Source: Burkholderiales bacterium (GTDB taxonomy: Bacteria; Pseudomonadota; Gammaproteobacteria; Burkholderiales; Burkholderiaceae_C). From it: a DNA stretch of 42,968 bases. The DNA lies in assembly GCA_031378565.1 (NCBI GenBank), contig JANNEI010000056.1, forward strand, positions 1 through 42,968, written 5' to 3'. Position 1 is the first letter of the stretch, and each line of letters begins with the position of its first letter. Made by a program: the position numbers and the translations under genes. Of this stretch, positions 8,975 to 36,720 are shown piece by piece. The notes under the pieces are model-generated. The model was not told where the DNA came from. It was given only the letters and a program-made list of their open reading frames with translations, and ran no database searches.

Positions 8975-10008
8975 CCCAGGCTGCGCACCACGAACGGCCC
9001 GAGCCAGTTCGCCACGCCGATCGGCATGCGCTTCCAGGTTTCGATCAACAGCCGGTACTTCGCGTTGGCCGGGTTGTTCTGGGGAATGGTATTTCGCTTG
9101 TAGAGGCGGTATTCGTAGTGCAGCGGCTGCGCCTCGAAGCCCCAGTTCTTCTTGAACGCATATGAGCCGGTGCCCTGCTTGCTGCGGCCGTAGTCGAACA
9201 GCTTCAGGCCTTTGGCGCAGGAACGCCGCATCAGCTCCCAGTACTTGAAGTCGTTTGCGGCGAGTTCGCGCGCCGACTCGTCGTCACCCGCGTAGTACGG
9301 AAGGACTTCATCGCGAAAATAGAAGCTCACGACGCCACTCAGCGCACGGCCACCGGGTGCGCTGACGATGAGCACTTCGCAGTCGGTGCCAAACTCATCG
9401 TGCAGCGCCTGGAAATAGCGCTTCGGCAGCGCCGGCGTGCCGTGACGGTGGACGTTCTCGGCGTAGAGCGAGAAGAAGCGGTCGAAGCCTGGATCGATGT
9501 CGCTGCGCAGTCCGTTCTTGATCCCCTTGCGCACCATCGCACGCTGCTTGCGCGGGATCGCCAGCATGTTGGCTGCCTCGTCGGGCAGGATGGCTTTGCG
9601 GAAGGTGACGTACAGGTCCTGCTTCGGCCAGTCGCCATGGCGCGCATCCAGGTGGCGCAGTTCGAGGTGGTCGACATCCAGATGACGGGCGATGCGCTGG
9701 GCTTCGTCTTCCAGTGCGCGCGCCACATCCGCATTCGTTGCCGCCACGCCGCCATAGACAGCGAACGGAAGGCTGACCAGCGAGTTGCCGAACAACAGCG
9801 ACTTGACGTGTGCGAGCGGCAGGACGCCTTCAACGTGCCCATCGATCTCGGCATAGAGAAAGTAGGTGTCGTGGCGGAACACCTCGCCCAGGATCTTCTG
9901 CCAGCCAGCGCGATGAAAGAAGGTTGCTACCGGACAGGACAGCACGAACCGATCCCAGCGCAACGCGGCCGGGGCGTCGTGCAACGACAGGCGTTGGAGG
10001 GTCAGCAC
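8971..10008 (-). CDS. FemAB-family protein, PEP-CTERM system-associated
   Basis: 345 aa. MLTLQRLSLHD...FFHRAGWQKIL...FKYWELMR...FKKNWGFE. Sits in the position typical for the exosortase-locus FemAB-like gene. Confidence 0.85.
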   Translation of the reverse strand: MLTLQRLSLHDAPAALRWDRFVLSCPVATFFHRAGWQKILGEVFRHDTYFLYAEIDGHVEGVLPLAHVKSLLFGNSLVSLPFAVYGGVAATNADVARALEDEAQRIARHLDVDHLELRHLDARHGDWPKQDLYVTFRKAILPDEAANMLAIPRKQRAMVRKGIKNGLRSDIDPGFDRFFSLYAENVHRHGTPALPKRYFQALHDEFGTDCEVLIVSAPGGRALSGVVSFYFRDEVLPYYAGDDESARELAANDFKYWELMRRSCAKGLKLFDYGRSKQGTGSYAFKKNWGFEAQPLHYEYRLYKRNTIPQNNPANAKYRLLIETWKRMPIGVANWLGPFVVRSLG

Positions 10009-10024
10009 GAGCGTGGGAGCGGCA

Positions 10025-10915
10025 TCAGCACGCGGGCCGAGGCGTGGCGTGGTTCAGGAAGATGTGGTCCATGCGGCCCCACCGGAAGTCGCGCAGCAGG
10101 CAGCTCAGGCGACGCTCCATTCGCCCGATGTTCACGTAGTGGCGGAATCGGGTCTTGCTGTCGATGCCCGCTATGCGCGGCTGGCCGACGTCGATCTCCC
10201 ACGGATGGAAATAGAAGATCGCCGACTGCTGCTCACGCACATTGACCCGCTGCAGCATCCAGCGCGACACCGAATACGGCAGCAACCTGAAGTAGCCGCC
10301 GCCGCTGGAGGGCAAATTGCGATTGAACATGCGCAGCGTCGTGATCGGGACTTCGAGCAGGGCTTCATTGACCCGGTGCGCGAAACGCGGCGCATCCGGC
10401 ATGCCGTAGTGATCGTGACGAATCGGGTAGATGCTGGAGCTGTAGCGGTAGCCGGCACGCGCGAGGCAATCGAAGGCCCAGAGGTTGGATGGACCGATCG
10501 AAAAGCTCGGTGCGCGGTAGCCGGTGACCTGAGTGCCGCACAGGTCTTCGAGAATCTTCTTCGCGCTTTCCACATCTTCGGCAAAGGCGACTTCGTTAAG
10601 GTCGGTGGCGCGCTGGTGGCCATAGCCGTGGCTGGCCACTTCGTGCCCTTGCGCGGCAATGCGGCGGATCAATTGCGGGTAGCGTTCTGCAATCCAGCCG
10701 AGGGTGAAAAATGTCGCGTGGGCACCATGCTCGTCGAGCATCGACAGAATGCGATCGACGTTGCGCTCGACCCGACACTCGCGCTGGTCCCACTCGGTTC
10801 GCGCGATGTAAGGGGCGAACGCCGACACCTGGAAGTAGTCCTCGACGTCGATCGTGAGCGCATTGGTGATCGACTGCGCCGGAGCTGTCGCGGCCATGCT
10901 CATGGTCGCTGCCAA
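10025..10915 (-). CDS. Polysaccharide deacetylase (CE4), PEP-CTERM locus subfamily
   Basis: LTIDVEDYFQVSAF, FFTLGWIAERYP, EVASHGYGH motifs. Confidence 0.9.
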   Translation of the reverse strand: MAATMSMAATAPAQSITNALTIDVEDYFQVSAFAPYIARTEWDQRECRVERNVDRILSMLDEHGAHATFFTLGWIAERYPQLIRRIAAQGHEVASHGYGHQRATDLNEVAFAEDVESAKKILEDLCGTQVTGYRAPSFSIGPSNLWAFDCLARAGYRYSSSIYPIRHDHYGMPDAPRFAHRVNEALLEVPITTLRMFNRNLPSSGGGYFRLLPYSVSRWMLQRVNVREQQSAIFYFHPWEIDVGQPRIAGIDSKTRFRHYVNIGRMERRLSCLLRDFRWGRMDHIFLNHATPRPAC

Positions 10916-17187: not shown

Positions 17188-18147
17188 TCAGCTTCGTGCA
17201 GTCTTTCGACGACGTGCGCTGAAGCCCAACCCAGCCAATGCCAAGCCCACCAACATCAAGCTGGAAGGCTCTGGAACGCGGGTGACGTCAACGTCGCCCG
17301 CGTGGCGCAGGCCAAGTGTGTAGGTTTCCGCACCGTCCAGAAGACCAGTCGTCGCCACGTGCGAACCTGAGCAATCGTAGACCGAGGTCTGGCCCGGAAG
17401 CTGCGCGTTGACGCTACGATTCAAATTGCAAGTATCCGTCGTTTCGACGCCACCAGTGATACCGCCACCCTGGCCGTTAGGAGACCAAGAAAAGACCGTG
17501 TTGCCGTTGCTGTCCTCGATACTGATGACCCATTGCTCAGAGGCGCGAGCCGTACCGAAACTGCCGAGATCAACGTTGGCAAACAGATGACTCAGCGAGT
17601 TAAGACTTATCGTCACGGCTTGGCCGGCTATCAAGGAGAACGAGAACGATGCGGTCAGGCCGAGATTGGATTGGATGGCACCGAAGCCGAGGATCGACGC
17701 GAGCTGCCCTTCGTTGACCACGTGCGCATCTGCGCCGGTGGCAAAGCCGGTTCCGAGCAACGGAGAGTTTTGCAGCAGGGTGTCGGCACGAGCCACATTC
17801 TTGGTCGCGGAGCCGGTTCGGTGGCTGTAGTCATCCTGGCCGAATGCGGCACAGTCGCCAGCACCAACACCACCCACGCCCACGCATTGCTGAGGAAGGT
17901 TCAGCGTTCCGAAAAAGCTCTGGTTGATCGCGTTCGAGGCGATGGTTCCATTCAGGTTGGCCGTCGCATTGCTGCTGTCATTGAAATTCAAGAAATCGAA
18001 CTGAGCGACGTTGAGCGTCGACCCGCCGACTCCGTTTAGGAACTTGAAGTCACTGACTTCCAGAACAGACTGACCCATCACACCTGCATGCGCTGAGCCC
18101 ACCGCACCAATCGCCGCTACCGCAATTGCCAAGAGTTTCGTTTTCAT
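17188..18147 (-). CDS. PEP-CTERM sorting-domain secreted protein (exosortase substrate)
   Basis: Signal peptide MKTKLLAIAVAAIGAVGSAHA. C-terminal VPEPSSLMLVGLALAGLGFSARRRK (PEP motif, TM, basic tail). GAGGAG lies 6 nt before the ATG at 18147. Confidence 0.9.
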   Translation of the reverse strand: MKTKLLAIAVAAIGAVGSAHAGVMGQSVLEVSDFKFLNGVGGSTLNVAQFDFLNFNDSSNATANLNGTIASNAINQSFFGTLNLPQQCVGVGGVGAGDCAAFGQDDYSHRTGSATKNVARADTLLQNSPLLGTGFATGADAHVVNEGQLASILGFGAIQSNLGLTASFSFSLIAGQAVTISLNSLSHLFANVDLGSFGTARASEQWVISIEDSNGNTVFSWSPNGQGGGITGGVETTDTCNLNRSVNAQLPGQTSVYDCSGSHVATTGLLDGAETYTLGLRHAGDVDVTRVPEPSSLMLVGLALAGLGFSARRRKTARS

Positions 18148-18213
18148 CGTCATCTCCTCAAATGGATGCCCGGATCGCAAATGCGCTTTCCGGTTGCTCT
18201 CGCCGACACTAGA

Positions 18214-18228
18214 GCAGGGAGCATGCCA
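18214..18228 (-). promoter_or_regulatory. Sigma-54 promoter upstream of the PEP-CTERM gene
   Basis: The minus strand reads TTGGCATGCTCCCTGCT versus the consensus TGGCAC-N5-TTGC. GG/GC spacing is exact. It resembles nifH-type TGGTATGTTCCCTGCA. About 55-nt leader to the ATG. Confidence 0.55.
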
Positions 18229-20735: not shown

Positions 20736-21377
20736 TCAGCGCGGGCGAATCAGAGGCCAACGCGCCAACCACCGATGTTGCGTCTTGCCCAAGAGGCTGC
20801 GCACAAGCACGAACTCGGTGGCGGTCCAGCGGATCGGCTCGACGGTGTGCTCTACGGCGACCTGGTCGTCGTAGAGCATTGTCATATGGGGCTTGCGACT
20901 GGGTTGAGACTCAAGCCCGGCGCGCTTGAGCGCGAGGCCCAGAATGTGCACAAGCTGGCTGACTGCCGCAGTGTCACGGCCGCACAAGACGAAGGCGTTC
21001 TTGCCGGAACTGCTGCCAGCGAAACTCAGTGCACGATCGAACACGATGTCGATCGGCGGGTGGATGACACCGGCTGCAGCGGCCATGGCCGCACCGACCA
21101 GCGCTTCCGGGACCGCGCCGACATAGTCACCCAAGCTGTGAAGCGTGATGTGCAGACGATCGGTGCGCAGCAGTTGGCCACCCAAGCGGTGGTGCTGCCG
21201 CAGCAGATGGATGGGTTCAGCCATGCGAGCACCGTCACCGGCTTGCGGAAACAACGCGAGGAACAATCGCTGAGCAGGCCGTATGCCATGCGGCCACGCG
21301 GGGGCGATGCTGCGCTTGGGCGGCGGGAATGACGGCGTCTGGGTGTCGAACCCTGGGAGGCTGAACTGTTCGAGCAT
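20736..21377 (-). CDS. 2H-phosphoesterase family protein (LigT / 2'-5' RNA ligase-like)
   Basis: Two H-x-T-x motifs, LHITLHS and PHMTMLY, about 90 aa apart. ATG at 21377 (a GTG lies one codon upstream). Confidence 0.7.
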   Translation of the reverse strand: MLEQFSLPGFDTQTPSFPPPKRSIAPAWPHGIRPAQRLFLALFPQAGDGARMAEPIHLLRQHHRLGGQLLRTDRLHITLHSLGDYVGAVPEALVGAAMAAAAGVIHPPIDIVFDRALSFAGSSSGKNAFVLCGRDTAAVSQLVHILGLALKRAGLESQPSRKPHMTMLYDDQVAVEHTVEPIRWTATEFVLVRSLLGKTQHRWLARWPLIRPR

Positions 21378-21652
21378 CACCGCAGCAGTTTACGTCGACC
21401 GCTGTCCTTGGGCCAGACGAGCCTGCCGTTCACACAAGCAAGATCCGCTGAGAATCGAAAATCGGTAACGTCACTCGCAGTTCGCTCAGCCGAGATGCCT
21501 GAAACGGAGCGTTCCCCCTGAAACAGGGGGGTTCTTGCACCGTCCGACTCAACCATAATTCTTACGCATAACTACTGACCCCGACCCCGACACGAGCCCG
21601 TCTCGATTCAGTTGGCGGCGAGGCGCATGTCTTGACGCGGGGGCGGCCGATC

Positions 21653-23053: not shown

Positions 23054-23178
23054 AGATTACAAAGCAAGCCTCGTCACATTTTGGACGCTCTCAACGTTTC
23101 CCGCCTATCTGTCGGGTAATGTGCTGTTCATAGTGGCGGTAAATACTCCCTCGCTCAACAAAGGCTAGGAGACAGAAA

Positions 23179-23832
23179 ATGAACGGTTCGATTCGGGACG
23201 ATGCTGCGGATGATCATCAGCAGCAAGCAATTTCTTTGATTGAGATGCGCACTGACCAGAAACCCGGAATGTCCACCCGTCGCGGCTTGATTCGGGCAGG
23301 TCTCAAAGCAAGCCCGGTAATTCTTACCTTGGCCAGTCGACCCGTGCTCGCTTGGCAGTGCAAGACCCCGTCGGCGCACGCGTCAGCGAACCTGAGCAAC
23401 CACGCTCAACAAACCTGGCCCGACTCATGCACTGCCACATCTACTTCGTGGTCGAACAAATGCACAGGGGTTGGTTCGGCCAAGGATGCATGCGGAGCCA
23501 CCCTTTCATGGCCGACTGGTGTGACCAAAAACACCCAATGCAACACCTTGATGGGTTCTGGGAGTTCCAGTTCGATTACCACCAAGCTTGCCAGTGGAAC
23601 CGGATTCGAGAAAACATTGATCACGTCGATGTTGAACGTGTTGACTGGGCGTGTCCCCGGGCAGTGTGTGACCAGCCAAAACATCAAGGACATGTGGTTT
23701 GCTGGCAATGCGGGTACGGGATACCAGCCGTCCGCAGGAATTTCGTGGTCGAAGCAGAACACGGTCGACTTCCTTCACAACAATTGGGTCGCAACCGTCT
23801 CGCAATTCGGTGGAAATCCGCCGACTGCATGA
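23179..23832 (+). CDS. Hypothetical Cys/Ser/Thr/Gly-rich protein with a twin-arginine-like signal
   Basis: AGGAG lies 7 nt upstream of ATG 23179. Residues 31-58 are MSTRRGLIRAGLKASPVILTLASRPVLA. Six Cys in the mature part. I recognise no family. Visibly AT-richer than the flanks. Confidence 0.6.
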   Translation: MNGSIRDDAADDHQQQAISLIEMRTDQKPGMSTRRGLIRAGLKASPVILTLASRPVLAWQCKTPSAHASANLSNHAQQTWPDSCTATSTSWSNKCTGVGSAKDACGATLSWPTGVTKNTQCNTLMGSGSSSSITTKLASGTGFEKTLITSMLNVLTGRVPGQCVTSQNIKDMWFAGNAGTGYQPSAGISWSKQNTVDFLHNNWVATVSQFGGNPPTA

Positions 23833-23862
23833 CAAGGCAAACTTCGGATCCGATTGCCGCCG

Positions 23863-24159
23863 ATGGTGCCAACGTGCTGGTTGCTCGATAGGCCGGAAAA
23901 TTTCGTTGATCGGGAGTGGGCCGGCGAAATCGTCGTCTTGAACACCCGCACCGGCGACACTCACCTGCTCTCACCTGCGGCCTCGGCGATCTATCGACTT
24001 CTCCAGATCGGCCCACAATCCCACGTCACGCTGTCAGAGCGACAGGATGCTGAATCTAGCCTAGCAGACCGGGCGGATCTGCCTGAGTTGGTGGAATCAA
24101 CACTGCAAGAGTTCTTCCGACTGGGATTGATCACGTCCTCATCCGTTGAAAATTGCTGA
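23863..24159 (+). CDS. PqqD-family peptide-chaperone-like protein (HPr-rel-A system type)
   Basis: About 98 aa. WLLDRPENFVDREWAGEIVVLNTRTGDTHLLSPAASAIYRLL fits the PqqD/RRE-like pattern (beta strands then helix). ATG 23863. A TTG at 23854 is also possible. Confidence 0.65.
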   Translation: MVPTCWLLDRPENFVDREWAGEIVVLNTRTGDTHLLSPAASAIYRLLQIGPQSHVTLSERQDAESSLADRADLPELVESTLQEFFRLGLITSSSVENC

Positions 24160-25084
24160 CCTCTCTCGGCCCGAACTCGCGAGGCGCATGGCCCGCGGGG
24201 ATTTGCTGATCCAACTCTCGCCGTTCGTTGCCAGGATCGAATCTCGGATCGACTCGGTGGTGTCGGGCATCAGGATCATGTACGCCGAGTTTTCCGTCAT
24301 CGGCGACGACAGGTTCGCGGACTTTCACATTCGCGTTGCACTGCCGAGGGGCCTCCGGCGCTGGCTGCGGCCTCAGGCGAATTTCTACTTTGACGGCAGA
24401 GCAGCATTCAAGCCGTTGCCCCTTGCACAGGCATACCCGATGCTCGAGTGGGGATTGAACTGGTGCATCGCAGCACACTCGCACCAGTTCCTGATCGCGC
24501 ACGCAGCGGTGGTCGAGAAGAATGGGCTGGCGGTCATCTTGCCGGCTCCGCCCGGTTCGGGCAAAAGCACCTTGTGCGCAGGATTGGTAAGCCGCGGCTG
24601 GCGGCTATTCTCTGACGAACTCGCGCTGTATGACCTGCAGACTCGCCTGATGCAGGCGTTGTCTCGCCCACTCAATCTGAAGAACGAATCGATTGCCGTG
24701 ATTCACCGGTTCGAGCCAGCGGCGACAATGACGTCCTCGGTACCGCACACCGCGAAAGGCACTGTGGCGCTGATGGCACCTCCAGACGACAGTGCGCGAC
24801 GGGTGCTTGAACAAGCGATACCAGCGTGGATCGTCTTTCCGCGCTATCAGGCTGGCGCACCGGCAAAGTTCGAATCCTGCAGCAAGGCCCGTGCATGCTG
24901 GATGCTTGCCGAGCAATCATTCAACTACAACATCCATGGACGCGCCGGCTTCGACGCTCTAGCGCACATGGTCGACCGCTGTGACTGCTACGAATTCACC
25001 TACGGCGATCTCGAAGAGGCGGTCAGCGCCTTTTCCACCTTGCGATCACCCTCTGCGTCATGCATCACCGAGACCTCGTCGTAG
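24146..25084 (+). CDS. HprK-related kinase A (P-loop, HPr kinase C-terminal-domain-like)
   Basis: Walker A LPAPPGSGKSTLCAGL followed by FSDE, as in HPr kinase-like folds. A TTG start at 24146 overlaps the PqqD-like stop. Alternative ATG at 24188. Confidence 0.7.
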   Translation: MKIADLSRPELARRMARGDLLIQLSPFVARIESRIDSVVSGIRIMYAEFSVIGDDRFADFHIRVALPRGLRRWLRPQANFYFDGRAAFKPLPLAQAYPMLEWGLNWCIAAHSHQFLIAHAAVVEKNGLAVILPAPPGSGKSTLCAGLVSRGWRLFSDELALYDLQTRLMQALSRPLNLKNESIAVIHRFEPAATMTSSVPHTAKGTVALMAPPDDSARRVLEQAIPAWIVFPRYQAGAPAKFESCSKARACWMLAEQSFNYNIHGRAGFDALAHMVDRCDCYEFTYGDLEEAVSAFSTLRSPSASCITETSS

Positions 25085-26262
25085 AAGCGCTGCTCAGTCC
25101 TGACCGCGCCGCCACTTACAGTGAGCCGCAATGGGACCTACTGATTCGACAGGCGCGCCGCGCCAACCTGCTGGGCCGACTGGCGCTGTGCATCGATGGC
25201 GAACGGGGCGCTTTGCGGGCCGCCTGGCAGCACCTGCTATCCGCACGGGTCGTCGCGGAGCGCCAGCAAGGTGCGATTCGCTGGGAAATCGAATGCATTC
25301 GCCGCGCCCTTGCCCCGACCGGTGTTCCCCTGGTGTTGCTCAAGGGTGCGGCTTACGCCATCGCAGGCTTGCCGGTTTCGAACGGCCGCATGTTCTCGGA
25401 CATCGACGTCATCATTCCAAAACAAGCAGTGCCCACTGTCGAATCGGCCCTGATGATGAATGGGTGGGTCGGTAGCCACCATGATTCGTACGACCAGCGG
25501 TACTACCGAAAATGGATGCACGAGATCCCGCCGATGCAGCATCTGCGGCGCGGCACGGTGATCGACGTGCACCACGCAATCCTCCCGGAGACAGCCCGAA
25601 TACGCGCGAACTCCTCGGCCATGCGTGAAGCCGCCGTCGCCGTTCCCGGCCACGCCGATGTGTTTGTTTTCGCACCGGCGGACATGGTTCTGCACAGCGC
25701 GACCCATTTGTTCCATGAGGGTGAACTCGACAATGGCCTGAGGGACTTGTTCGATCTCGACAGCCTGCTTTGTCATTTCGGCGCGACCCCGGGATTTTGG
25801 GAGCAGTTGCCCGTGCGGGCTGCCGAACTCGGCCTGCAGCGGCCATTGTTCTACGCACTGCGTTACGCCATTGTTCTACTGGGGACTCCGGTGCCAGAGC
25901 CTGTGATCACTGCGGCGCAGCAAGGGGCACCGCATCCCGCCGCCATGCCGCTGATCGACTTCTGCTTCCTGAGAGGTCTGCGAGTCGACCACCCGACCTG
26001 TGCAGATGGCTGGACACCACTGGCGCGATGGCTCCTGTACGTCAGATCGCACTGGCTGCGGATGCCGTTCTTCCTGTTGCTGGTTCACCTGGCGCGCAAG
26101 GCCATCGTGCCGTCAAGACAGAACGAAGCGGAAGCAGCCGCACCGCTCGCGCACACGCCGCAGCACGAGGCAGATGAACAACAGACCGTTCGGGCCGCAC
26201 GCAGCGGTGCGGTCGACGATCTATCAGAGTCGGCACGCAACGGTCATTCACAGACTTTGTGA
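25060..26262 (+). CDS. Nucleotidyltransferase family protein (uncharacterised NTP_transf_5-type, Pol-beta fold)
   Basis: LLKGAAY...NGRMFSDIDVIIP (G-S..D-x-D NTase motif), then VIDVHHAI. The ATG overlaps the kinase 3' end by 25 nt. Confidence 0.7.
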   Translation: MHHRDLVVEALLSPDRAATYSEPQWDLLIRQARRANLLGRLALCIDGERGALRAAWQHLLSARVVAERQQGAIRWEIECIRRALAPTGVPLVLLKGAAYAIAGLPVSNGRMFSDIDVIIPKQAVPTVESALMMNGWVGSHHDSYDQRYYRKWMHEIPPMQHLRRGTVIDVHHAILPETARIRANSSAMREAAVAVPGHADVFVFAPADMVLHSATHLFHEGELDNGLRDLFDLDSLLCHFGATPGFWEQLPVRAAELGLQRPLFYALRYAIVLLGTPVPEPVITAAQQGAPHPAAMPLIDFCFLRGLRVDHPTCADGWTPLARWLLYVRSHWLRMPFFLLLVHLARKAIVPSRQNEAEAAAPLAHTPQHEADEQQTVRAARSGAVDDLSESARNGHSQTL

Positions 26263-27289: not shown

Positions 27290-28162
27290 ATGCCAAACGC
27301 CAAACCAGAGTTCTCGTACGATGAGGCATTTTCAAGGAATATTGGATGGGTGACGGAAGCTGAACAGCGTCAGCTGAGGAATTCCAGGGTGTGTATTGCC
27401 GGGCTCGGGGGTGTCGGCGGTGTCTATCTTCTGACTTTGGCAAGACTTGGAATCGGGGCTTTCAGCGTCGCCGATTTCGATACCTTTTCGCTTGCCAACT
27501 TCAATCGTCAGGCAGGTGCGATGCTGAGTTCCATTGACCGTCCGAAGACCGATGTCATGGTCGAGATGGCACGCGACATCAATCCGAATCTGGATATCAG
27601 AATTTTCCGTGACGGTCTGAGTCAGGAAAATCTGGGCGATTTTCTTGCCGATGGGGATATCTATCTGGACGGTCTCGATTTTTTTGCACTCGATATCCGT
27701 CGCCGCCTGTTCTCCATCTGTGCTGAAAAGGGGATTCCCGCCACCACCGTCGCTCCACTCGGAATGGGTGCCGCACTGCTCAATTTCGTGCCGGGCAAGA
27801 TGACGTTCGAGGAGTATTTCGGCCTGGGCGGCCATACTGAGGGAGAGCAGGCCCTGCGGTTCCTGATCGGCTTGTCGCCCGCCATGCTGCAGATGACTTA
27901 TCTGGTCGATCCGACGAGAGTCGATCTGGAAAGGCGCAGGGGGCCGTCCACGATCATTGCGGTGCAACTTTGCAGTGGCATCGCCGCCGCGCAAGTGCTC
28001 AAGCTGCTGCTCAAGCGTGGCGATGTGGTCGCCGCGCCATCGGGGCTGCATTTCGATGCCTTCCGCAATCTGCTCAGGCGAACCTGGCGCCCGGGTGGCA
28101 ACAAGCATCCGATGCAACGGCTGGTGCTGCGCATCGCCCGAAAGCGGCTGCGGGTCAGGTAG
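27290..28162 (+). CDS. ThiF/MoeB/HesA-family E1-like adenylyltransferase
   Basis: ATG 27290 preceded by GGGAGA. CIAGLGGVGGVYLLTLARLG nucleotide-binding loop, ADFDTFSLANFNRQ. No CxxC zinc motifs seen. Confidence 0.8.
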   Translation: MPNAKPEFSYDEAFSRNIGWVTEAEQRQLRNSRVCIAGLGGVGGVYLLTLARLGIGAFSVADFDTFSLANFNRQAGAMLSSIDRPKTDVMVEMARDINPNLDIRIFRDGLSQENLGDFLADGDIYLDGLDFFALDIRRRLFSICAEKGIPATTVAPLGMGAALLNFVPGKMTFEEYFGLGGHTEGEQALRFLIGLSPAMLQMTYLVDPTRVDLERRRGPSTIIAVQLCSGIAAAQVLKLLLKRGDVVAAPSGLHFDAFRNLLRRTWRPGGNKHPMQRLVLRIARKRLRVR

Positions 28163-28215
28163 TTGCACACTCCAGCCTCGACGCAGCAACCCAACCTGAC
28201 TCCGAGGCAACCTCC

Positions 28216-29322
28216 ATGGCCATACCATCCACCGTCGAGCAGATTCTTGACCTCAGCCGGTGGGCACCCAGCGGCGACAACACGCAGCCCTGGCGCTTCG
28301 AGATCGTCGATGAAGGGCACGTCGTCGTACACGGCTTTGATACCCGGGATCACTGCGTCTACGATCTCGACGGACACCCGAGCCAGATCTCGTTGGGAGC
28401 GCTGATCGAAACGATTTCCATCGCCGCGAGTGCGCATGGCTTGCACACCGCAGCCTCCCGACGCAGCGGACTTCCCGACACCACACCCACCTTCGATCTT
28501 CGTTTCTCGTCCGATCCGCGAACGCAGGCCGATCCGCTGGTCACGCACATCCCCACACGCAGCGTGCAGCGACGCCCGATGCGCCTGCGCCCGTTGAGTG
28601 CAGCCGAAAAGCTCGCGCTCGAGGCATCGGTCGGCAGTGCCTGTCAGGTGCAGTGGATTGAAGGGTTCAGCGCGCGAAGCCGGGCCGCACGTCTGATGTT
28701 CAACAACGCCAGACTTCGATTGACCATGCCTGAGGCCTATGAAGTCCATCGGGATGTCATCGAATGGAACGCGAGGTTCAGCGAAGACCGGGTGCCGGAT
28801 CAGGCGCTCGGGGTCGACCCGATGACCGCCAGGCTGATGCACCACGTGCTTGGAAGCTGGGATCGCGTCAAGTTCTTCAACCGGTTTTTGGCTGGCACCG
28901 TGGCCCCGCGCCTTCAGATGGATCTGATCCCAGGGATTTTTTGCGCCGCACATTTCGTGCTCCTGGCCAGGCGGCGCCCACAATCGATTGACGACCATGT
29001 CGCCGCCGGCAGGGCCGTGCAGCGGTTCTGGCTGACGGCAACATCTCTCGGCCTCGTGATGCAGCCGGAGCTGACGCCGTTGATCTTCTCGCGCTATGTT
29101 CGCGACGGCGTCGCATTTTCCGCAGAACCCGGGATGGAGCAGACAGCGCGCGCTCTGGCGCTGCAACTGGAGGCGCTGATCGGCGCAGAAAGCACCGGTC
29201 TGGCGGTGTTCTTGGGTCGCATCGGTGCCGGCACCGCGGCCGTGTCGCGATCGACCCGCAAGCCGCTGGACCAGTTGATGGTTGCAACCGGCCGGATCAC
29301 TGAGCCTTCAGCAGCTGATTGA
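28216..29322 (+). CDS. Tandem nitroreductase-fold protein (Acg-like FMN-binding family)
   Basis: ATG 28216 preceded by GAGG. ILDLSRWAPSGDNTQPWRFEIV. Its 368-aa length fits a two-lobed nitroreductase-like protein. Confidence 0.7.
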   Translation: MAIPSTVEQILDLSRWAPSGDNTQPWRFEIVDEGHVVVHGFDTRDHCVYDLDGHPSQISLGALIETISIAASAHGLHTAASRRSGLPDTTPTFDLRFSSDPRTQADPLVTHIPTRSVQRRPMRLRPLSAAEKLALEASVGSACQVQWIEGFSARSRAARLMFNNARLRLTMPEAYEVHRDVIEWNARFSEDRVPDQALGVDPMTARLMHHVLGSWDRVKFFNRFLAGTVAPRLQMDLIPGIFCAAHFVLLARRRPQSIDDHVAAGRAVQRFWLTATSLGLVMQPELTPLIFSRYVRDGVAFSAEPGMEQTARALALQLEALIGAESTGLAVFLGRIGAGTAAVSRSTRKPLDQLMVATGRITEPSAAD

Positions 29323-33688: not shown

Positions 33689-35224
33689 TCAAGCTGTCCT
33701 GCCGGGGGCAAACGAAGCGGCTTCTCGCAGATCGTCGAGCCAGGCCTCGTAGGCGGCGTCCCGCTCGGCGGGTTCGGCGCGCAACAGCGCCGACGGGTGC
33801 AGCGTGATCAGCACCCGCCGCCCGTCGTTGCGGATCAACCAGCGCCCGCGGTCCTTCATCACCGCCACCGGCGCGCCCATCAGCGAGCGCGCCGCGGTGG
33901 CACCGAGGGCCACCAATGCCGCCGGCTGAACAAGATCGATCTCGCGTTCAAGCCAGTCCAGGCAGGCGGCAGCTTCCTGCTGCGACGGGGTTTTGTGGAT
34001 GCGTCGCTTGCCGCGCAGTTCGTACTTGAAATGTTTGACCGCGTTGGTCACGTACACCGCGCCACGCGCCCATCCCAGGTCGGCAAGTGCACGGTCGAAA
34101 AGCTGTCCGGACGGGCCGACGAACGGCCGGCCGTGCAGGTCTTCCTGGTCGCCCGGTTGCTCGCCAACGAACATCACGCGCGCCGACAACGGGCCTTCGC
34201 CGCTCACCGCCTGCGTTGCGTGCTGGCCGATCGGACAGGCGCGACAGCGCTCGGTCGCCTCGCGCAATTCGGCGAGGCCGTGCAGCCCTTCGGCCGCAAC
34301 TGCAACCGCTGCCGCTCGCACGATGACAGGCGCGGCAACCAGCGGCCTGCGCCTCGTGGAGACGGTCGGTGCCCCGTCGATCATGGCGGCGGTGCGCTGC
34401 TGCGCCTGCGCAGACAGTGGGCCGATCAAGGCAGCTTCTGGCAGGTTCTTCCAGTACCGCTTGGGCATTTCCTTCTGCATCATCCTGAGCTTCAGCCGAG
34501 CCGGATTGAAGATGTTGCGGTAGTACGTGAGCCAGAGTTTTTCCCCGGCGTCTGCAGGCGGCGCGTCGTTGCGCCCGGCACCCGGGTTGAATTCGAGTTG
34601 CGAGCCGTTCCACCGTACGCAGCGCTCGGGTGTCAGGATGGCCCAGCGCATCTGGGTGAAGCGGCGCACGAAGAAAGGCGCGATCGCCTCGACGATGTGG
34701 TGCTCGGGCTCGAACCACGCAACGTGCAGCGGCTCGGCCTGCGGGCACTCGACATCCACGCCCGGCTCGATGCGCGTAAAGCGCACGAAGGCCTTCATCT
34801 TGTGCTGGTCCCGGTGCACCGAATGCGCCATGCGGGTCAATGCCAGGCGGTCGGGGTCGAGCGGGTCGTGTCGCAGGCCGCTGTCGTGCTGCAAGCGCCA
34901 GAGCAGTCGGTACAGCAGGCCGAAGCGCGTCGAATCGCGGTGCAGCACGACGCTGGCGCACAGCGTTGCGAAAGCCTCCGGAACGCGAAGCGTGCACTGA
35001 CCCTCGCCGTCCGGCACCGGCTCGACAACCGCGCGATCGAGGTGCGACGGCTCACTGCCGAAAAGATCGGGTTCGGCGGCCAGCCCGGTTTCCCATGTCA
35101 CCTGTTCTGGCAGCACACCCCGAGCGATGAGCTGTCGGCAGGCACGCCGGAATCCATCGAGGTCGGTGGCGCTGGCCAGACGAACGACGCGCGGTTCGTC
35201 GCTTCGAGAAGGCTCAGTCCCCAT
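33689..35224 (-). CDS. Probable DNA-metabolism domain (DUF4130-like) fused to a family-4 uracil-DNA glycosylase domain
   Basis: C-terminal CRACPI...GEGP...VMFVGEQPGDQEDLHGRPFVGPSGQLF...HPSALLR. The N-terminal half is typical of the partner of the DNA-repair radical SAM protein. Overlaps the upstream gene by 11 nt. Confidence 0.85.
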   Translation of the reverse strand: MGTEPSRSDEPRVVRLASATDLDGFRRACRQLIARGVLPEQVTWETGLAAEPDLFGSEPSHLDRAVVEPVPDGEGQCTLRVPEAFATLCASVVLHRDSTRFGLLYRLLWRLQHDSGLRHDPLDPDRLALTRMAHSVHRDQHKMKAFVRFTRIEPGVDVECPQAEPLHVAWFEPEHHIVEAIAPFFVRRFTQMRWAILTPERCVRWNGSQLEFNPGAGRNDAPPADAGEKLWLTYYRNIFNPARLKLRMMQKEMPKRYWKNLPEAALIGPLSAQAQQRTAAMIDGAPTVSTRRRPLVAAPVIVRAAAVAVAAEGLHGLAELREATERCRACPIGQHATQAVSGEGPLSARVMFVGEQPGDQEDLHGRPFVGPSGQLFDRALADLGWARGAVYVTNAVKHFKYELRGKRRIHKTPSQQEAAACLDWLEREIDLVQPAALVALGATAARSLMGAPVAVMKDRGRWLIRNDGRRVLITLHPSALLRAEPAERDAAYEAWLDDLREAASFAPGRTA

Positions 35225-36500
35225 CGAACGACGCTTCGAACAACGATGCCTGCTGCGGTGCCGCCGCGGGCCGCAGCAACGCTGTGAAGCGCTCGTCGCT
35301 CAGTTCGGCACCCCGTCGCTGCCCATCGACCCGCACGAACGGCAGCACTTTCTTGAGCGGCACATTCAGCCTGCCCAGATCGTCGGCCCGCAGCCGCCGG
35401 ATGCGCCGCGATTGCATGAGCCGTTGCACCGCCTTGACGCCCAGGCCGGGGACCCGCAGCAGCATTTCCTTCGGCGCGGCGTTCAGGTCGACCGGGAAGC
35501 GCTCGCGATGTGCCAGCGCCCAAGCCAGCTTCGGGTCGATGTCGAGGGCGAGCATGCCGTGCTCGGCAGACACGATCTCGTCGTGTGCAAAGCCATAAAA
35601 GCGCATCAACCAGTCGGCCTGATAAAGCCGGTGTTCCCGGGCCATCGGCGGCGGCTTCAGCGGCAGCGCCCGCGAGCTGTCGGGGATCGGGCTGAAGGCA
35701 GAGTAATAGACCCGCTTCAGGCGGTAAGAACCGTACAGCGTCGCGCTGGTCAGCAAGATGGTGCGGTCAGACGAATCGTCCGCCCCGACGATCATCTGCG
35801 TGCTCTGCCCTGCCGGCGCGAAACGTGGAGGCTTGGCGCGACGCGGCGGCACCATCACCTGCGAGGTGGTCGGTGCGGGCCGGGCGGCCTCGCGCGCGTC
35901 GGCGATGTGAATCGCCAGCCGCGCCATCGAGCGCCGGATTCCCGGGCCGTCCTTTTCGGGTGCCAGTGCAGCAAGGCTCTGCACCGTGGGAAGTTCGATG
36001 TTGATGCTGAGCCTGTCGGCGTGGCGGCCGGCCAGCGCCAGCAATTCGGCAGACGCCTCGGGGATGGTCTTCAAGTGGATGTAGCCGCGAAAGTCGTGCT
36101 CTTCGCGCAGCACGCGGGCCACCTCCACCACCTGCTCCATCGTGTAGTCGGGGCTGCGAATGATGCCGGAGCTGAGGAAGAGGCCCTCGATGCAATTGCG
36201 ACGATAGAAGTCGAGCGTCAGCTTGACCACTTCATCCACCGTGAAGCGGGCGCGCGCCACGTTGCTCGTCACGCGATTCACGCAGTACAGACAGTCGTAA
36301 ACGCAAAAATTCGTGAGCAGAATCTTCAGCAGCGAGATGCAGCGGCCATCAGGTGCATAGCTGTGGCAGATGCCCGAGCCTTCGGTTGAACCGATGCCGC
36401 GCCCGCCGACCGAATGTTTGGTGGTGGTGCCGCTCGACGCACACGAGGCGTCGTACTTGGCGGCGTCGGCGAGGATGGCGAGTTTGCGGTCGAGGTCCAT
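35214..36500 (-). CDS. Putative DNA modification/repair radical SAM protein
   Basis: MDLDRKLAILADAAKYDASCASSG start. CVYDCLYC (Cx3Cx2C). C-terminal HhH-like LLRVPGLGVKAV. The start at 36500 leaves the SOS box in the promoter region. Confidence 0.85.
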   Translation of the reverse strand: MDLDRKLAILADAAKYDASCASSGTTTKHSVGGRGIGSTEGSGICHSYAPDGRCISLLKILLTNFCVYDCLYCVNRVTSNVARARFTVDEVVKLTLDFYRRNCIEGLFLSSGIIRSPDYTMEQVVEVARVLREEHDFRGYIHLKTIPEASAELLALAGRHADRLSINIELPTVQSLAALAPEKDGPGIRRSMARLAIHIADAREAARPAPTTSQVMVPPRRAKPPRFAPAGQSTQMIVGADDSSDRTILLTSATLYGSYRLKRVYYSAFSPIPDSSRALPLKPPPMAREHRLYQADWLMRFYGFAHDEIVSAEHGMLALDIDPKLAWALAHRERFPVDLNAAPKEMLLRVPGLGVKAVQRLMQSRRIRRLRADDLGRLNVPLKKVLPFVRVDGQRRGAELSDERFTALLRPAAAPQQASLFEASFDGD

Positions 36501-36580
36501 GTCGGAGGAAGGAGAGACCGGCAGCGTCGGACTGAAAAAGTCGTGGCGTGGTGCGTCTCTCAAAATGCTGGATGAGAAAG

Positions 36581-36596
36581 CTGGATGAATATACAG
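36581..36596 (-). promoter_or_regulatory. LexA (SOS) box
   Basis: The minus strand reads CTGTATATTCATCCAG, matching CTGT-N8-ACAG-type CTGTATATATATACAG at 13/16 with a perfect left half. It lies 81-96 nt upstream of the radical SAM ATG. Confidence 0.55.
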
Positions 36597-36720
36597 CAGC
36601 CCGCATTCTGCCCCGTCCCGCGGTGGTATCACCAGACACCGCGCCGCTGGGCGTTCGGCCGGGGAGGCAACCCTGCCCGAGACGCCAGCAACGTCTAGTC
36701 TTCCGCCCTCGGCGCCTCGA

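Follow-up and report, generated by a model that had tools for sequence, protein, structure and literature searches.

What could a putative peptide-modifying cassette act on when it lies in an exosortase locus, with neither a lasso cyclase nor a B2 protease beside it? The question is raised by positions 23179 to 26262 of a 42,968-nucleotide (nt) contig of a Burkholderiales bacterium (JANNEI010000056.1, assembly GCA_031378565.1), which was analyzed in full and is called the window below. The segment carries four open reading frames (ORFs) on the + strand, of 217, 101, 312, and 400 aa. An initial annotation read it as three genes, encoding a PqqD-like peptide-binding protein, an HprK-related kinase, and a nucleotidyltransferase, with no annotated precursor. 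This count is one short: the 217-aa gene upstream of the three, inside the same interval, belongs to the unit as its obligate fourth member, and its product is the obvious candidate for the substrate. Judging from its sequence and its constant company, we consider it likely that the 217-aa protein is what the cassette enzymes modify. On balance, we also favor a broader reading, drawn by analogy, in which the four-gene operon would modify its own first gene product post-translationally, as a proteobacterial counterpart of the linear polyphosphorylated peptide (LPP) system of Bacillota.

The linkage was examined with a kinase-based scan of one genome per species, which gave 75 loci from Thiobacillaceae, Massilia/Telluria, Thioalkalivibrio, Sulfuricella, Undibacterium, Accumulibacter, Paucimonas, several Alteromonadales, Nitrospira, and one member of the Terriglobia. 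The nucleotidyltransferase gene lies directly 3' of the kinase gene in 73 of these loci, the other two being contig ends. A PqqD-like ORF recognized by an iterated hidden Markov model (HMM) directly precedes the kinase gene in 69, usually with a 4-nt overlap; five of the remaining six, all from Alteromonadales, have an ORF of 83 to 90 aa at this position, which resembles the HMM weakly in three cases, and the sixth is cut by a contig end. The three genes of the initial annotation therefore do co-occur elsewhere, and far more regularly than chance would allow. So does the fourth: the 217-aa family is found directly 5' of the PqqD-like gene in 71 of the 75 loci, and contig ends account for three of the four misses. 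Read in the other direction, seven family members taken from an independent protein search and traced on their own contigs with called genes were all followed by an ORF of 92 to 125 aa, a kinase of the PF27840 (ScmC) type, and a PF14907 protein; the small ORF matched PF05402 (PqqD) in two of the seven, in one of them faintly. When all neighboring ORFs of the 75 loci were clustered, no family beyond these four was common across clades, and the conserved neighbors included neither a lasso cyclase nor a B2 protease, nor any dedicated peptidase or exporter. The annotated genes of the 43-kb window likewise include no lasso cyclase, B2 protease, peptidase or signal peptidase, or ABC exporter, in agreement with the earlier remark that the first two are missing. 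Thus, the 217-aa protein, a PqqD-type recognition element for peptides that are ribosomally synthesized and modified after translation (RiPP recognition element [RRE]), HprK-related kinase A, and the PF14907 nucleotidyltransferase form an obligate unit that is coupled in translation, ranges over Beta- and Gammaproteobacteria, and includes single Nitrospira and Terriglobia loci.

The ORF positions reported at the outset are correct, as are the overlaps: the PqqD-like ORF runs 14 nt into the kinase ORF, which in turn runs 25 nt into the nucleotidyltransferase ORF. The 217-aa and PqqD-like genes share one reading frame. Genes throughout the segment abut or overlap, leaving 23054-23178 as the only intergenic stretch, so that space for another precursor ORF is lacking. 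A separate small precursor ORF was considered and rejected; the stretch holds only ORFs of 27 and 51 aa, the longer of which overlaps the end of the transferase gene.

Two loci show variants of the unit. The fourth miss of the 217-aa family, on the Terriglobia metagenome-assembled genome contig CAVTZY010000048.1 (L071:9378-9593), has a 71-aa ORF ahead of the RRE gene. This ORF consists of an RR-type signal, AKRRKLIGRVLMGAPAVLLMTTKSLRA, followed by 21 residues, the last of which is Ser; the folded domain is absent. From its sequence, it looks like a peptide-sized precursor. Since this mini-precursor keeps only the RR-signal part, the N-terminal part is the common denominator of the candidate substrates. 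On the other locus, Joint Genome Institute metagenome contig Ga0394675_017024 (L080:1991-8648), two complete four-gene copies stand in tandem, with divergent precursor-like proteins (328 and 251 aa as called) and a separate RRE, kinase, and nucleotidyltransferase for each copy.

The 217-aa gene has an AGGAG ribosome-binding site 8 nt ahead of its ATG. Searches of Pfam and NCBIfam gave zero matches for the protein or for five diverse relatives, and a Foldseek comparison of its model with PDB and BFVD gave no structural neighbor. A profile search collected 861 representatives (at 50% identity) at E ≤ 1e-3 and 253 at E ≤ 1e-10, a family that is wholly unannotated. Its members start with a variable stretch of 25 to 35 residues, followed by Arg-Arg in an S/T-R-R-x-[FL] context and then by a hydrophobic stretch. 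The RR motif is present in 191 of 195 members, the c-region motif of a twin-arginine translocation (Tat) signal in 163, and the combined pattern RR...C-x1-4-S-x3-S in 175. The window sequence, STRRGLIRAGL...TLASRPVLA, has the motif features by which Tat signals are recognized (an S/T-R-R-x-F/L-L/I-K-like motif, an h-region of moderate hydrophobicity, a basic c-region residue, and an A-x-A-type cleavage site), and the N terminus appears to carry a bona fide-looking Tat signal.

Conservation is concentrated in and just after this signal. In an alignment of 48 sequences with a mean column identity of 26%, 11 residues are invariant, nine of which fall within residues 34 to 69 (R34, R35, L51, A52, P55, C61, S65, A66, and S69), while T50, S53, R54, V56, L57, and A58 are at least 90% conserved. 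The mean frequency of the top residue is 0.73 in the signal (residues 31 to 58) and 0.72 in residues 31 to 75, versus 0.42 in the rest of the mature protein with its folded domain; the signal end and the next 15 to 20 residues are the best-conserved part of the protein. Among 63 loci, the family pattern in this region is C-x1-2-P-S-[AG]-x2-S-[GA]-N-x-S-x-H-G-x4-C-x-G-x-[ST]-P-G-Y-W. The spacer from VLA to the Cys varies (one to three residues), whereas the spacing within the motif is fixed. AlphaFold2 (AF2) assigns a predicted local distance difference test (pLDDT) score below 50 to residues 1 to 79 and of ∼90 to the helical domain at 80 to 217. If the signal served export alone, it would not be expected to surpass the exported folded domain in conservation; such a pattern is what one would look for in a leader that a specific binding protein recognizes. 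The possibility that the protein is a lipoprotein was rejected, as the conserved Cys is never behind a lipobox; spacers such as those in VLAWQC, VLATDQC, and AMASMVC part it from the signal.

The proposed reader of this leader is the 101-aa protein, which matches TIGR04353 (HPr-rel-A system PqqD family peptide chaperone) with 48.9 bits against a cut-off of 35. When the family profile was compared with PDB, the only significant relatives were TbiB1 (5v1u; E = 9e-5) and TfuB1 (6jx3; E = 5e-3), both of them lasso leader-binding B1 proteins, and the alignment covered 80 of the 96 profile positions, end to end. The Pfam PqqD model is matched by 12 of 28 family members (best E = 8e-10), and G34, T36, and H37 of an SGDTH motif are nearly invariant. 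By these sequence relationships, the protein is assigned as an RRE with a PqqD-like fold, related to lasso B1 proteins.

The kinase matches TIGR04352 (HprK-related kinase A) with 390.4 bits against a cut-off of 200, over 280 of 280 profile positions. It is no HPr kinase/phosphorylase proper, the scores for which are below cut-off (17 bits versus 240 for TIGR00679 and 16.6 versus 33.3 for PF07475). The PAPPGSGKST segment corresponds to residues 133 to 142, and H119, G137, G139, K140, S141, T142, D157, and E158 are invariant in 21 to 41 sequences; hence, the catalytic residues whose loss would have spoken against the initial annotation are all kept. Lasso peptide kinases have an essential His-Lys-Asp-Asp motif (PMC9266682). 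Of this set, as known from lasso and LPP kinases, H119, K140, and D157 are invariant in the cassette family, whereas the fourth position is an invariant Glu, E158, instead of Asp. The kinase profile matches Lactobacillus casei HprK/P (1jb1; E = 3e-3) in the segment of the His, the P-loop, and the Asp-Asp pair only. With its AF2 model (pLDDT 93.5), Foldseek finds ATP-dependent phosphoenolpyruvate carboxykinases (ATP-PEPCKs; E ∼ 1e-5, TMq ∼ 0.5) and HprK/P (E of 2e-4 to 1e-2), which have the PEPCK-like P-loop fold in common with it. The kinase family has at least 6,601 clusters (90% identity) at E ≤ 1e-5, and public records call the homologs HprK-related kinase A, a name given by homology only. 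The public call of the window gene begins 14 codons downstream (24146-24188) and gives a product of 298 aa. Homologs align from residue 1, with M1, L6, L11, and L15 conserved, so the TTG at 24146, placed in the overlap with the RRE gene, is the better-supported start.

The nucleotidyltransferase matches PF14907 (NTP_transf_5) with 181.3 bits against a cut-off of 31.2, so that all three family assignments of the initial annotation were reproduced above cut-off. Residues 109 to 120 read GRMFSDIDVIIP. G109, R110, D114, D116, and D169 are invariant in 18 to 71 sequences, together with H154, H161, H171, H172, H212, and H216; the C-terminal ∼50 residues are not conserved. A profile search against PDB identified no sequence relative, and the only matches, to prion proteins, were at chance level. 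As a curiosity, the invariant segment at residues 144 to 158 (25489-25533), YDQRYYRKWMHEIPP, lines up with the prion protein segment YEDRYYRENMHRYP at an E value of about 0.8. The features of the four genes are collected in Table 1.

Table 1. Coordinates of the four-gene unit and its predicted features in the window
Feature	Coordinates	Strand	Basis or remark
Candidate substrate/precursor, 217 aa	23179..23832	+	Twin-arginine signal, Cys/Ser motif, folded helical domain; unnamed family
Twin-arginine-type signal peptide, residues 31-58, RR at 34-35, end TLASRPVLA	23269..23352	+	48-sequence alignment
Predicted-disordered motif W-Q-C61-K-T-P-S65-A-H-A-S69-A-N-L-S73, proposed modification site	23353..23403	+	Alignment and AF2
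Folded, mostly helical C-terminal domain, residues 80-217	23416..23829	+	AF2
Discrete RRE (PqqD-like) protein, 101 aa	23854..24159	+	TIGR04353
HprK-related kinase A (PF27840 ScmC-type), 312 aa	24146..25084	+	TIGR04352
Kinase H119	24500-24502	+	Invariant
Kinase P-loop G137-T142	24554-24571	+	Invariant Walker A
Kinase D157-E158	24614-24619	+	Invariant
PF14907 nucleotidyltransferase, 400 aa	25060..26262	+	PF14907 match
Nucleotidyltransferase motif G109-R-x3-D114-x-D116	25384-25407	+	Invariant; D169 = third Asp

How might these four proteins work together? In Bacillota, a non-lasso set consisting of an RRE, an HprK-like kinase, and an NTP-transferase makes LPPs (Popov et al., Nat Commun 2026;17:6633; PMC13381572), and the scheme that we propose follows the same logic. 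The scheme begins in the cytoplasm with the RRE, which would take up the conserved signal end, TLASRPVLA, as an added beta-strand and would present the adjoining C-x2-P-S-x3-S-x-N-x-S segment to the kinase. The kinase would add one or several phosphates to one candidate among the invariant serines, S65 or S69, much as homologous kinases do with Ser3 of LppA and with the C-terminal Ser of lasso precursors. The nucleotidyltransferase may then elaborate the phosphate with a hexose or a nucleotidyl group, as PsmN does in the case of pseudomycoidin. This elaboration is a tentative part of the scheme, argued from analogy, and it is the weakest one because the LPP enzyme LppN was inactive in the only reconstitution. 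The folded, modified protein would be exported by the general Tat pathway and cut after VLA by the general signal peptidase I; these housekeeping functions would stand in for the SipW-like peptidase and the MsbA-like pump of LPP clusters. The product would probably act in the envelope or in the exopolysaccharide (EPS) matrix under the XrtA/PEP-CTERM regulon. The PEP-CTERM/exosortase system was named for putative exopolysaccharide and floc formation, and a related PEP-CTERM family is annotated as flocculation associated. A bolder version of the scheme, which we regard as doubtful when taken whole, is that the Tat signal doubles as a RiPP-type leader and that the RRE is a substrate presenter and a proofreading chaperone at once, keeping the folded ∼200-aa protein away from Tat as long as it is unmodified. 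The phospho-glycosylated or nucleotidylated product would then act in the XrtA/PEP-CTERM exopolysaccharide/floc matrix, e.g., as a polymer anchor or primer.

Several observations weigh against a self-modifying operon of the LPP type. The cargo is a folded domain of 140 aa and not a peptide. The leader has no aromatic residue where the [Y/W]xxP motif places one, its P-3 residue being Ala, Glu, His, or Thr, and some clades replace the leader Pro itself (Massilia, with ESKSAMA). The Tat assignment draws solely on motif features. The kinase and nucleotidyltransferase are likened to LppK and LppN and to PsmK and PsmN by protein type. Finally, the inactivity of LppN was seen in a heterologous system, which is the only LPP reconstitution (PMC13381572).

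The genomic setting of the cassette bears on what else it could do. By Pfam and NCBIfam scans, the remainder of the window makes up a canonical XrtA/PEP-CTERM exopolysaccharide locus. It has genes for XrtA-EpsI, PrsK, PrsR, PrsT, a FemAB-family protein, a deacetylase, an ATPase, an outer-membrane protein, a tyrosine kinase, a chain-length determinant, an export protein, an EDSAP-1 PEP-CTERM protein (17188-18180, − strand, 5 kb from the cassette), and a TIGR03013 priming transferase, with non-EPS genes among and beyond them. The cassette comes directly after the priming glycosyl-phosphotransferase gene. PrsK, PrsR (≥50% identity), PrsT, or a priming transferase is encoded within 10 kb of the cassette in 22 of the 75 loci, which represent at least nine genera, and three further metagenomic loci have probable PrsK/PrsR/PrsT homologs (by domain architecture) and/or PEP-CTERM-domain proteins beside the cassette. 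On the other hand, the cassette follows prfA-prmC in ∼30 Thiobacillaceae-type loci, without adjacent polysaccharide genes. By these counts, the link to the exosortase regulon is strong but not obligatory; the embedding in an exosortase locus that was first described for the window extends to many relatives and stops short of being a rule.

A kinase followed by a nucleotidyltransferase is also the classical two-step route to activated sugars. The two enzymes could in that case activate a small molecule for the EPS pathway, phosphorylating a sugar and then converting it into a nucleoside diphosphate sugar, and the PqqD-like and 217-aa proteins could be accessory, e.g., a regulator and a periplasmic handler. 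The pairing of the two enzymes fits this general knowledge. The place of the cassette after the priming transferase in the window, and near polysaccharide genes in many loci, points the same way, as do the top structural matches of the kinase model, which are small-molecule kinases, the ATP-PEPCKs. However, PF14907 is not a family of sugar-1-phosphate nucleotidyltransferases, a discrete RRE whose nearest relatives bind lasso leaders has no role in sugar activation, and polysaccharide genes are not adjacent in the ∼30 Thiobacillaceae loci after prfA-prmC. Sugar activation also leaves the extreme conservation of the disordered signal and motif segment unexplained, and wherever kinases of this HprK-like type have been studied by experiment, their targets are serines of peptides (PMC13381572, PMC6993621, PMC9266682). 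We consider this explanation quite improbable.

If the substrate is indeed a peptide or protein, it could still be encoded elsewhere, with the 217-aa protein as a periplasmic partner of the trio; XrtA-sorted PEP-CTERM proteins or an unannotated small peptide would be candidates. Such a target would agree with the frequent linkage to PrsK/PrsR/PrsT and PEP-CTERM domain proteins, with the EDSAP-1 PEP-CTERM gene only 5 kb off in the window, and with a 217-aa leader that lacks the canonical aromatic RRE anchor. It accords poorly with the finding that the 217-aa family is the only universally conserved neighbor and was duplicated with the others as a four-gene unit in L080. Many genomes, moreover, have the cassette far from any XrtA genes, the window has no intergenic space for another ORF, and the Terriglobia version, a signal with a short tail, resembles a precursor peptide. 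A remote substrate is therefore improbable in our estimate. As for a cryptic lasso peptide cluster, in which an asparagine synthase homolog of the XrtA locus would serve as the macrolactam cyclase, the idea takes its appeal from an RRE that is closest to lasso B1 proteins and from two AsnB homologs in the window that match NF033535 at 254 and 239 bits. Both scores are far under the 525-bit cut-off, and the 254-bit homolog passes the XrtA amidotransferase model TIGR03108 (1093 bits versus 817). Both proteins start with MCGI and so keep the glutaminase nucleophile, whereas lasso macrolactam synthetases have no glutaminase domain, and their genes are 17 to 22 kb away on the other strand. Only one of the 75 loci has an AsnB homolog within 10 kb of the cassette, and neither a B2 protease nor a short core peptide is a conserved neighbor in the 75. 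Context thus effectively refutes the lasso explanation, to which we give almost no weight, and modification of the 217-aa protein by its own cassette stays the reading that we prefer.

Some further observations concern the regulation and the neighbors of the cassette. A sigma-54-type −24/−12 site, TGGCATGCTCCCTGCT, lies at 18213-18228 (− strand), 33 nt upstream of the EDSAP-1 PEP-CTERM gene, which is consistent with control by the sigma-54 activator PrsR. No sigma-54 promoter was found on the + strand upstream of the 217-aa gene, and a scan for sigma-70 promoters and terminators gave fewer matches than in shuffled sequence. Genes for a Trypsin_2 serine protease and for a Sel1 plus SLT (lytic transglycosylase) protein recur by the cassette in three unrelated metagenomic loci (L076:13020-14689, L081:317-2035, and L082:4816-5622 and 9907-10842) and are absent from the window.

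Past the cassette, the window encodes a FeeM-like N-acyl amino acid synthase (PF21926; 26248-27093, − strand), a ThiF-family PRK08223 protein (429 bits; ∼27290-28162, + strand), and an Acg/Rv1355c-type nitroreductase (∼27970-29322, + strand). These three match separate parts of one 989-aa fusion family, NF011425 (PRK14852), and 11 Massilia/Telluria loci have them close to the cassette and PrsT; they may be a second conserved, uncharacterized module of the XrtA neighborhood. A gene of the LigT-like 2',3'-cyclic phosphodiesterase/2'-5' RNA ligase family (20736-21380, − strand), odd for an EPS locus, lies between prsK and the priming glycosyltransferase gene. Directly past prsR, at 33689-36632 (− strand), are a UdgX-family uracil-DNA-binding protein fused to a TIGR03915 domain and its radical-SAM partner (TIGR03916).

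How does the proposed system compare with known ones? The redox enzyme maturation proteins TorD and DmsD bind a twin-arginine signal and hold their substrate until it is mature. The hold-until-mature logic proposed for the RRE is similar, a likeness of inferred function only: TorD and DmsD are all-helical, whereas the RRE would have an unrelated winged-helix fold, and they attend cofactor insertion rather than a covalent serine modification. In the literature that we searched, no paper joins twin-arginine signals with RREs.

The tailoring of the lasso peptides paeninodin and pseudomycoidin has three protein types in common with the cassette, namely, the kinases PadeK, ThcoK, and PsmK, the nucleotidyltransferase-like PsmN, and the B1 RRE. 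In pseudomycoidin, PsmK (poly)phosphorylates the linear precursor at its C-terminal Ser, and the attachment of one or two hexoses to this phosphate requires PsmN (PMC6993621). The analogy that the initial annotation drew with these clusters is sound, and the chemistry proposed here is alike in that the lasso kinase has the linear precursor as its target and the nucleotidyltransferase-like enzyme adds hexose to the phosphoserine (PMC6993621, PMC9266682). Unlike lasso clusters, the cassette has no lasso cyclase, B2 protease, or ABC exporter. Its kinase has Asp-Glu in place of Asp-Asp, its acceptor would be an internal Ser near the mature N terminus and not the C-terminal Ser, and its candidate substrate is a protein that bears a Tat signal.

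In NCBIfam, the cassette falls under the HPr-rel-A system (TIGR04352 plus TIGR04353), to which the window genes belong with scores above the cut-offs. That system has models for the kinase and the PqqD-like protein only and none for the upstream exported protein. Our search of the literature for TIGR04352, HPr-rel-A, and NTP_transf_5 found nothing relevant. The earlier statement that the cassette has no assigned biochemistry consequently stands for the proteobacterial HPr-rel-A form, for which no paper was found, and is out of date for the cassette type, given the LPPs of Bacillota (PMC13381572). What would be new here, as far as sequence can tell, is the fourth member as a candidate substrate, the Tat signal as a leader, and the link to LPP chemistry; the cassette itself was already named and is uncharacterized. 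A candidate substrate that is a constant neighbor makes a large, homology-named kinase family directly testable, and if the reading is right, it would offer a first molecular way into a conserved, unexplained component beside the PEP-CTERM/exosortase regulators.

The closest comparison is with the LPP clusters themselves (PMC13381572). Both systems combine an RRE, a kinase, a nucleotidyltransferase, and a linear precursor, without a macrolactam synthetase, a likeness to LppB, LppK, and LppN at the level of protein types. Both live among polysaccharide genes: LPP clusters are located in capsular or surface-polysaccharide loci (PMC13381572), and the XrtA link of the cassette parallels this capsule link. 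LppK polyphosphorylates Ser3 of a linear precursor; LPP precursors are 35 to 200 aa long with a conserved N terminus, YxxPxVLxHQxIxFETxxS, and their leader is removed by a SipW-like signal peptidase with the assistance of the RRE, an MsbA-like pump being encoded in the cluster (PMC13381572). The modified Ser of LPPs lies just after a leader cut by a signal-peptidase-type enzyme, and the candidate site of the cassette is similarly placed. The cassette leader is a twin-arginine signal that ends in A/x-x-x-P-V-L and not in the LPP motif. When that motif is set against RR...TLASRPVLA-x1-3-C-x2-P-S-x3-S-G-N-x-S, the common elements are P-V-L and a Ser 14 to 15 residues past the Pro, and the A-S-R-P-V-L of the signal has the P-x-L of the [Y/W]xxPx[L/V/I/F/A] RRE-binding motif of lasso peptides and LPPs without its aromatic anchor. 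The position of S69, 14 residues past the Pro versus 15 in LPPs, is suggestive and may be a coincidence.

The two systems differ in that the cassette has neither a SipW-like peptidase, which is a signal peptidase I of the archaeal type, nor an MsbA-like pump, and in that its cargo is a conserved folded domain. They differ in hosts as well: LPPs are stated to be restricted to Bacillota, with no mention of Proteobacteria, Tat, or exosortases (PMC13381572), whereas the cassette, known here from its genes, belongs to Proteobacteria, with Nitrospira and Terriglobia loci in addition. If our reading holds, polyphosphorylated-peptide chemistry would not be restricted to Bacillota, RRE-guided modification would reach a folded, Tat-exported protein and not just a short peptide, and a general signal peptide could serve as a leader. 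On the bolder version of the scheme, thousands of Gram-negative genomes would apply RiPP logic to whole folded proteins with nothing more than housekeeping export and cleavage.

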